Virus record (IMG/VR): IMGVR_UViG_2913123054_000005
Span: 1-37,915 of that record
Reading direction: 5' to 3' (one strand)
Source: a virus
Lineage: Duplodnaviria; Heunggongvirae; Uroviricota; Caudoviricetes
Length of the DNA stretch: 37,915 nucleotides
Shown here: piece after piece, positions 29,258 to 30,246 of the stretch
Layout: every line of letters begins with the position of its first letter
Position numbering within the stretch: the stretch's first letter is position 1
Notes under the pieces: generated by a model
Told to the model about the DNA's origin: nothing
What the model saw: the letters and a program-made list of their open reading frames with translations, nothing else
The model's database searches: none
Position numbers and translations under genes: made by a program

Positions 29258-30246
29258 CCCCTGAATCCTGCCGGGATCTGGCTGTAGTCCACGTTGTCGT
29301 AACTGGATTTGAAGTACGGGTCCTCGCGTTTTTCGGTGTACGTGCTGACGGACGGCGATAAGCGCAGGGAAAGCTCATCCCATTTTTCCCGCAACTTCGA
29401 CGGGCTGAGCACGTTACGGCACCAGAACGGATCGCGGCTGACGCGGCTGTACATCTCGCAGATTTGTTTGTGAGTACGACCATCCTGCACACACATCAGG
29501 CGAATTTCGTTTGCCCAGGCTGTCCAGTTCGGCTCTTTGGGACGAACCACCTCGCCGTCACATTCGGCAGCCTGCTCGTACAGGGCGATGATTTTTTTCC
29601 AGAGCCACTGTGCGCAGGTCAAATCATCCTGCGTCCCCCACTGGCGCTTTTTAGGGCTGAATACAATCGCATCAGGATGGCGAGTTAAAAAATCCTGTTC
29701 AGCCGTCTGCGTGTCCGGTTGCGAAGCGTCCGGACGAGAAGAGGTTTTATTCTCTGTAGTAATCTCTGTTGTATTCTCTGTAAGATCATTGGGCCATTTT
29801 GACCCGATGACAGCGTGTCGTTTTGAACCAATGGATCGTGTCATTTTGCGCCCATCCATCAGGTCACTTTGACCCGATGGAGAAGAGCATTTTGACCTGA
29901 TGGATTCGTTCACTTTGACCTCTTCTAAAAGCTCACTTTCATAGTTGATCGTGTAGAAGTTGGTCATGTCACGCTTCGATTTATTGAGTTGCTCGCGACG
30001 CAAAACCCCAAGTGATTTCAGGCTTGCAAATGTGCGTTTCAGAGTGGACTCTGACCAGAACGGAAACTGCTCCAGCCACTGTTCTGTCGTGTTATAAACC
30101 CAGCGAATTCCGCCATGCTCAGTGCCTGAATTCGTTTCATTCAGCCAGTAATGAAGCTGCTGCAACACAATTGCCTCATTCAGACCAATACGGCATGCAA
30201 GATCACGATTTATCACAATGGGCTGGGATGTCATTAACAGGCTCAT
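29254..30246 (-). CDS. Replication initiation protein (iteron-containing, O-like)
   Basis: 330 aa; winged-helix-like N-terminus; iterons lie in the linker-coding region; C-terminal domain resembles a DnaT/primosome-interaction-like region. Confidence 0.65.
   Translation of the reverse strand: MSLLMTSQPIVINRDLACRIGLNEAIVLQQLHYWLNETNSGTEHGGIRWVYNTTEQWLEQFPFWSESTLKRTFASLKSLGVLRREQLNKSKRDMTNFYTINYESELLEEVKVNESIRSKCSSPSGQSDLMDGRKMTRSIGSKRHAVIGSKWPNDLTENTTEITTENKTSSRPDASQPDTQTAEQDFLTRHPDAIVFSPKKRQWGTQDDLTCAQWLWKKIIALYEQAAECDGEVVRPKEPNWTAWANEIRLMCVQDGRTHKQICEMYSRVSRDPFWCRNVLSPSKLREKWDELSLRLSPSVSTYTEKREDPYFKSSYDNVDYSQIPAGFRG
29794..29926. repeat. Iterons: six direct repeats of about 18 bp (cATTTTGACCcgATGGa) at 23-24 bp spacing; candidate origin of replication
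   Basis: Repeat starts at 29795, 29819, 29842, 29865, 29889, 29912; flanked by three TCTCTGT repeats at 29742-29779. Confidence 0.6.

Follow-up and report, generated by a model that had tools for sequence, protein, structure and literature searches.

A probable lambda-type replication origin inside the O-like initiator gene of a lambdoid phage

The 37,915-nucleotide (nt) stretch of DNA analysed here in full, and referred to as the window (IMG/VR record IMGVR_UViG_2913123054_000005, a virus of the Caudoviricetes), carries a gene for an O-like replication initiator of 330 amino acids (aa). Within its coding sequence lie (i) an array of six phased iterons and (ii) a tract of three 12-base-pair (bp) repeats (12-mers), which are considered here as a candidate origin of replication. 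The best PHROGs match of the initiator is phrog_391, 'replication initiation O-like' (E 5e-101), and 'DnaD-like helicase loader' families of PHROGs also match it, down to E 3e-35. The six iteron cores are on the coding (minus) strand, span 129 bp (29792-29920) and follow one another at start-to-start distances of 23, 23, 23, 23 and 24 bp; the array occupies nt 320-454 of the initiator gene. The features of the locus are collected in Table 1.

Table 1. Features of the initiator gene and its embedded repeats (window coordinates; a point-like joint has no strand).
Feature	Position	Strand	Basis
O-like replication initiator gene, 330 aa	29254-30246	-	Open reading frame (ORF) list; phrog_391
N-terminal winged-helix domain (N-domain), aa 1-105, presumed iteron-binding	29932-30246	-	AlphaFold2, Foldseek
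Iteron 1 core, GGTCAAAGTGAAC	29908-29920	-	Dyad scan
Iteron 2 core, GGTCAAAATGCTC	29885-29897	-	Dyad scan
Iteron 3 core, GGTCAAAGTGACC, centre of a 27-bp palindrome	29862-29874	-	Dyad scan
Iteron 4 core, GCGCAAAATGACA, degenerate in the window	29839-29851	-	Dyad scan; alignment of relatives
Iteron 5 core, GTTCAAAACGACA	29816-29828	-	Dyad scan
Iteron 6 core, GGTCAAAATGGCC	29792-29804	-	Dyad scan
Three 12-bp repeats, ACAGAGAATACA, ACAGAGATTACT and ACAGAGAATAAA (ACAGAGA(A/T)TA), presumed unwinding/loading element	29748-29783	-	Motif scan, Tandem Repeats Finder
Mosaic joint with SfII/SfIV-type phages, at the distal edge of the 12-mers	29745-29753		Identity profile
Helical C-terminal domain (C-domain), homologous to the lambda O C-domain (P-interacting in lambda)	29359-29691	-	BLASTP, AlphaFold2
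Extreme C-terminal tail SQIPAGFRG (aa 322-330)	29257-29283	-	Match to the E. coli DnaT end SQIPPGFRG

The iteron unit is a 13-bp dyad, GGTCAAAATGACC, which a scan places at six sites of the array with one to three mismatches each. When 66 copies from 11 homologues are pooled, their consensus is an exact dyad, GGTCA-AAA-TGACC. In the window, the arms are complementary at 9/10 positions in copy 3 and 8/10 in copy 6, and at only 5-6/10 in the other four. The palindrome around iteron 3 spans 29855-29881 and reads TCCATCGGGTCA-AAG-TGACCTGATGGA; the 3' end of iteron 4 on the plus strand (..ATCCATCAGG..) is its left arm. Iteron 4 is well formed in relatives as GGTCAAAATGA, of the GGTCAAA(A/G/T)TGA type, with GCCAAAGTGA in one of them (L012). 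An earlier 17-nt consensus, allowed up to three mismatches, gives six matches in the window, five of them within 29795-29904, where 0.44 are expected per 37.9-kb window and none of 100 shuffles reaches six. At three mismatches the 13-mer has a high background (~12 expected per window), so that the significance comes from the clustering and phasing of the sites and not from their number. Neither the 17-nt nor the 13-bp motif scan detects a second cluster of the iteron motif in the window. A repeat search groups four to six direct 23-nt copies, spaced 23, 24 or 46 bp, together with three 12-nt copies of TATTCTCTGTAG; Tandem Repeats Finder alone recovers just 2.5 iteron copies, an undercount because the copies are degenerate.

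The 12-mer tract begins 9 bp after iteron 6, on the C-terminal-coding side, and is reported by Tandem Repeats Finder with a period of 12. The motif ACAGAGAWTA has three exact matches, all at 29748-29781, against 0.05 expected in the window. The lowest GC content of the gene (0.33-0.35, at 29740-29799) covers the 12-mers, and the coding strand is purine-rich here. The 12-mers are near-invariant among colinear enterobacterial loci and are read in one frame, ACA-GAG-AnT (T-E-x-T), in all relatives. Across 21 loci from several phyla, 40 of the 43 T-E pairs of the 12-mers are spelled ACA-GAG; elsewhere in the same genes ACA makes up 25% of Thr codons and GAG 38% of Glu codons. The pattern suggests that ACAGAGAnTA(C) is a sequence-specific element and not simply AT-rich DNA. 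In lambda, a single GTCAGAGAATTC is found at the same relative position. The initial annotation had described the region as six direct repeats of an 18-bp motif at 23-24 bp phasing inside the replication initiator coding sequence, preceded by three TCTCTGT repeats. The motif and dyad scans bear out the number, phasing and place of the iterons, and the phrog_391 match the nature of the gene. The repeated motif is real and is better described as the 13-bp dyad, while the TCTCTGT repeats are a plus-strand view of the 12-mers, which in the (minus) direction of the gene follow the iterons, as in lambda.

The protein encoded by the gene is modelled as two folded domains separated by a long linker. 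The AlphaFold2 model (34-sequence alignment; mean predicted local distance difference test score, pLDDT, 64.7) has a confident N-domain at aa 10-110 (pLDDT ~90-97), of winged-helix type with the topology H-H-b-b-H-H-b-b, and a helical C-domain at aa 206-296, followed by a C-terminal tail of low confidence. Most of aa 111-204 has a pLDDT <50 (125-128, 143-178 and 180-204 are below 50). The iterons and 12-mers encode aa 107-167, within this low-confidence linker; the repeat-coding part is thus predicted to be a disordered linker joining the two folded domains. The 50 best Foldseek matches of the N-domain include the plasmid Rep N-domains 4pql, 5kbj and 4pt7 and the DnaD N-domain 2v79, all weak matches (probability 0.92-1.0, but E 0.008-0.16 and target TM about 0.46-0.6). 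A Pfam scan of the initiator gives no family at E<=0.01, hence no lambda-O-type N-domain family, and a sequence search of the PDB gives nothing at E<=1. A protein homologue search with the N-domain returned only short or partial proteins (<190 aa) with no Pfam marks, which served the structure alignment but were of no help with domain architecture.

The layout of the locus resembles that of lambda. In lambda, too, phased iterons with an internal dyad and an A-tract centre occupy the middle of the initiator gene; an unsupervised, naive 12-mer repeat finder, used for both genes, recovers the four annotated lambda iterons at O-gene nt 348-433, the same place as the window array. This match in position, in the linker between N- and C-domains, supports the placement of the origin. 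An AT-richer, purine-skewed tract follows the iterons on the C-terminal-coding side in both, and the C-domain of lambda O is homologous (BLASTP aa 147-294, 148 aa, 34% identity, E 4e-27). As with lambda O, the gene comes after cro/cII, and early transcription of the rightward type reads through it. The Stx phages 933W and P27 have six-iteron variants of the lambda origin, the number also present in the window (PMC7466680). There are also differences. The N-terminal half of lambda O has no BLASTP similarity to the window N-domain, though the predicted fold is a winged helix, and the iteron arms are GGTCA/TGACC in the window versus TCCCTC/GAGGGA in lambda (TCCCTC-AAAAC-GAGGGA). In the window the iterons are followed by a conserved 12-mer repeat, versus a plain A/T run in lambda; the window protein ends in a DnaT-like tail versus ..DWIYGVDL in lambda O; and no P gene follows O, unlike the lambda O-P module. 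Thus, the lambda analogy is incomplete, with an N-domain unrelated in sequence and no P-like loader.

Selection on the repeats can be judged among relatives. A scan of genome contigs with the N-domain and linker yields 17 loci; ten of these, together with HannyBb, form a test set of 11 homologues that are colinear with the window through codon 153 and that represent seven genera, including E. coli, E. albertii, E. ruysiae, Citrobacter, Enterobacter, Raoultella and Izhakiella. Mean pairwise identity at third codon positions is 0.84 in the iteron cores and 0.80 in the spacers, compared to 0.555 in the N-domain. Amino-acid identity is 0.70 in the iteron zone, lower than the 0.83 of the N-domain. 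In order, the copies begin at codon phases 1, 0, 2, 1, 0 and 0, so that all three phases are used. Conserved third positions in cores that occupy all three phases point to selection on the DNA, not the protein. Together, the alignments show the iterons and the 12-mers alike to be under selection at the DNA level.

Mosaicism among phages adds a second line of evidence. By megablast, the whole gene is shared only by mEp460_4F5 (98.4%); SfII, SfIV and many others share just 29254-29756, at ~97%. Identity to SfII is 95-100% up to ~29733 and 0.2-0.4 beyond ~29754, such that the 3' side of the gene is alike and the 5' side unrelated. SfII has an unrelated N-domain and, at the same gene position, unrelated repeats, TGACCCGTCAAA, of 15-bp period. 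This TGACCCGTCAAA-type array of SfII (L002) occupies O-gene nt 301-445, is read as DPSKSDASKS.. peptides and gives way to an A-rich tract that has no ACAGAGA repeats; the array is probably the SfII origin. Six relatives (L009-L014) show the reverse exchange: their C-domain is different, but the N-domain, the six iterons and the 12-mers are all kept. Relatives of this kind, with a different C-domain joined to the same repeats, are found in Citrobacter and Enterobacter. Natural domain swaps thus occur both ways, and the iterons segregate with the N-domain, as would be expected of a binding domain and its sites. The gene consists of two exchangeable modules, one formed by the N-domain, iterons and 12-mers and the other by the C-domain; the N-domain and iterons act as an exchangeable specificity cassette, as in the lambda type.

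The same order of parts is found well beyond the enterobacteria. A search with the N-domain matches 115 phage records, among them those of Staphylococcus (33), Bacillus (12), Bacteroides (12), Klebsiella (10) and Vibrio (9). Dyads and then 12-mers come after the N-domain in Staphylococcus 42E, Bacillus TP21-L, Listeria PLM34, Pseudomonas AF, Erwinia PEp14, Stenotrophomonas QH16, one Bacillus genome and three Deferribacterales metagenome-assembled genomes (MAGs). In these, the dyads have the form [arm]CAAAATG[arm'] and are phased at 21-25 bp, with arms that differ by lineage. One to four CAGAGAnTA units follow these dyads (12-mers in L016, L017, L019, L020 and L024-L029). The downstream partner genes vary and include a loader with a DnaB-like helicase, a primase-helicase, a P-like loader or nothing. 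Three contigs from Deferribacterales/Proteobacteria MAGs (L019, L020 and L021) code for proteins of 790 aa in which the N-domain is duplicated in tandem; 8-9 iterons of 21 bp, read as SVQNDQS.. or RPQPDQS.. peptide repeats, come next, and a long cysteine-rich C-terminal extension follows the iterons.

Origins of lambdoid and related phages are known to sit within the initiator gene (PMC7466680, PMC8022706, PMC5499656). Gene 18 of P22 and gene 18 of phage L, which encode distantly related origin-binding proteins, contain distinct iteron sets that were likewise inferred from repeats within the genes (PMC8022706). The P22 and L modules carry a gene for a DnaB-type helicase (gene 12) and other iteron sequences, unlike the window. 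In the Bacillus phage SPP1 (G38P/oriL) and the staphylococcal phage 80alpha (ORF20, a 'replisome organizer'), the origin is embedded in the gene for the origin-binding protein, and deletion of 80alpha ORF20 is not complemented in trans (PMC5499656). SPP1 and 80alpha encode a helicase loader, with or without a helicase; the window has none. The weak fold likeness of the N-domain (E 0.008-0.1, 16-20% identity) is to PDB entries titled 'N-Terminal domain of DNA binding protein' (4pql), 'Structure of Rep-DNA complex' (5kbj) and 'Structure of initiator' (4pt7). These entries are presumably staphylococcal initiators of the RepA_N type, which belongs to plasmids of Gram-positive bacteria, with origin iterons inside the rep coding sequence; the plasmid Rep entries belong to plasmid replicons, the window to a phage replicon. 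No description of this origin was found in the literature on SfV, mEp460 and iterons.

A tblastn search of the whole window with lambda P, E. coli DnaC, a DnaB-like helicase and a primase-helicase returns nothing, and PHROG scans of the early regions reveal no loader or helicase in the window. The phage thus matches the 'O-only' class: 34 of 314 enterobacterial lambdoid phages have an O homologue alone (PMC12315714). Of the enterobacterial initiators examined, all 13 that lack a neighbouring P-like gene carry ..IP(P/A)GFRG, or a close variant of it, at the C-terminus (the relatives L003, L005-L011, L013 and L014 among them); the two relatives with a P-like gene downstream (L012 and L015) have a different end, ..HWNSPEAWENTL. 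HannyBb-type initiators end in ..QRCVNHISEPDTEIPPGFRG, identical at 14 of 20 positions to the end of E. coli DnaT (dnaT being L023 79-618), with both segments at the extreme C-terminus and sharing the form ..SEPDxxIPPGFRG. The window protein is identical to DnaT at eight of its last nine residues. The rest of DnaT does not align, the similarity covering only the last 9 residues here and the last 17-20 in the HannyBb type. By its sequence the initiator is not a DnaT homologue, as it has neither the DnaT N-domain nor the three-helix-bundle C-domain; what it has is a DnaT-like tail only. Recent papers on DnaT and the preprimosome assign no partner to the last ~20 residues of DnaT, and the string PPGFRG was found in none of the papers searched. 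The DnaT-like tail may be the way in which O-only lambdoid phages reach the host helicase-loading machinery, a lead and not a result.

Taken together, the locus very likely contains a theta origin of the lambda type that lies within the gene for its own initiator. The initial annotation had proposed a lambda-O-style layout and a probable ori; the linker position and the C-domain homology agree with the former, the unrelated N-domain and the missing P-like loader do not, and the latter is supported by DNA-level selection and by co-inheritance with the N-domain. By analogy with lambda O/ori-lambda, SPP1 G38P/oriL and the RepA_N plasmids, dimers of the N-domain would bind each dyad. In-phase sites, spaced at 23-24 bp or about two helical turns, would let the DNA wrap into an O-some-like complex. 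Torsional stress, along with pR-type transcription through the gene, would open the adjacent 12-mer tract, where the host DnaB helicase would be loaded. None of the phage genes encodes a helicase or loader, so loading would rely on host DnaC-DnaB, recruited, speculatively, via the lambda-O-like C-domain and/or the DnaT-like tail ..SQIPAGFRG; equally speculatively, the tail may tap the host primosome.

Several observations weigh against this assignment. Three of the six window copies have three mismatches to the 13-bp dyad, and the tract is only ~66% AT, less extreme than that of lambda. The third positions of cores and N-domain differ with a Mann-Whitney p of 7.5e-6, a value that overstates the independence of homologues that are kin. 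Selection on the protein may also contribute to the conservation of the 12-mers, given their single reading frame. The Foldseek search of the PDB puts winged-helix DNA binders on top for the N-domain, with every E>0.001. According to PMC12315714, no lambdoid phage of the O-only class has so far been studied, and the evidence for helicase recruitment is limited to a tail similarity of 9-20 residues and the absence of a loader gene.

The repeats could alternatively be initiator sites used mainly for control (autoregulation, titration/handcuffing or exclusion of related phages), with replication starting elsewhere or being dependent on recombination or restart. O-only lambdoid replication is 'not yet understood' (PMC12315714), and the lack of an encoded helicase or loader would fit such a role, as would a DnaT-like tail that points toward the restart machinery. 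Ectopic lambda iterons also inhibit cognate phages, according to two reports (PMC3349717, PMC4488673). This explanation is nonetheless unlikely: different phyla retain the full origin layout, phased dyads with an adjacent AT-richer tract toward the C-terminal side, whatever the partner gene, and the window has no second motif cluster.

Still less probable is that the repeats have no DNA function and are a by-product of linker peptides (I-G/R-S-K, P-S-G-Q, T-E-N-T) selected in the protein. The linker is loosely repetitive as a peptide (SIRSK, SGQSD, SIGSK, VIGSK, TENTTEITTENK), and the common frame of the 12-mers in all relatives is what such selection would give. The 23-bp period, however, is not a multiple of three, and cores in all three phases turn the same DNA into different peptides. 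In addition, third positions of the cores are more conserved than those of the folded N-domain even though amino-acid identity is lower, the linker is predicted to be disordered, and the ACA-GAG choice hardly varies among hosts whose codon usage differs. The peptide explanation is rejected on the codon phases and, for the iterons, is largely refuted. A functionless chance cluster or low-complexity sequence is scarcely credible and is rejected on the conservation of the array in seven enterobacterial genera and other phyla. Single 13-mer matches with three mismatches are common (~12 expected per window), but six sites fall within 129 bp at a regular 23-24 bp phasing, and both the five clustered 17-mer matches and the three ACAGAGAWTA matches far exceed their window-wide expectations (0.44 and 0.05).

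The genes around the probable origin are those of a lambdoid early region. The initiator is the final gene of a cro / cII-like / DUF4222 / O operon that runs leftward from the immunity region, with the P22-Cro-like, cII-like and DUF4222 genes upstream on the same strand and a cI-like S24 repressor gene divergent on the opposite strand. Downstream are genes for a PerC/yfdN-like protein, Dam, a LexA DNA-binding-domain protein and RusA. The PerC/yfdN-like gene (164 aa, 28763-29257, minus strand) overlaps the initiator stop codon (GTGA), which suggests translational coupling. A PerC/yfdN-like gene also follows the initiator in SfII, mEp460_4F5, L009, L011 and L014, and none does in HannyBb, L005, L006, L010 and L013. 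An antisense ORF that overlaps the array (29537-29872, plus strand) is opposite the conserved gene and is treated as spurious.

The origin-in-initiator layout is textbook, and the finding is in this respect confirmatory. It marks the probable origin of a prophage replicon that is very common in E. coli: of 5,426 complete genomes of this species, 1,057 contain at least 80% of the initiator gene. The RefSeq rows listed under the match hold only 'hypothetical protein', DUF4222 and PerC/yfdN features, and the initiator appears to be unnamed in them. The parts worth following are the O-only context, the conserved 12-mer element and the DnaT-like tail; six dyads, three 12-mers and such a tail offer a concrete, testable route to host helicase recruitment in O-only phages. 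A broader and more tentative proposal, for which the odds are somewhat unfavourable, joins three points: that a winged-helix N-domain, CAAAATG dyads and ACAGAGAnTA form an uncharacterised multi-phylum cassette, that the 12-mers are a specific single-strand/loading element, and that O-only initiators load DnaB by mimicry of the DnaT tail. If true, this mimicry would plug a phage origin into the host restart primosome or DnaC-DnaB, and would explain the replication of lambdoid phages that have no P, DnaC or DnaB homologues.

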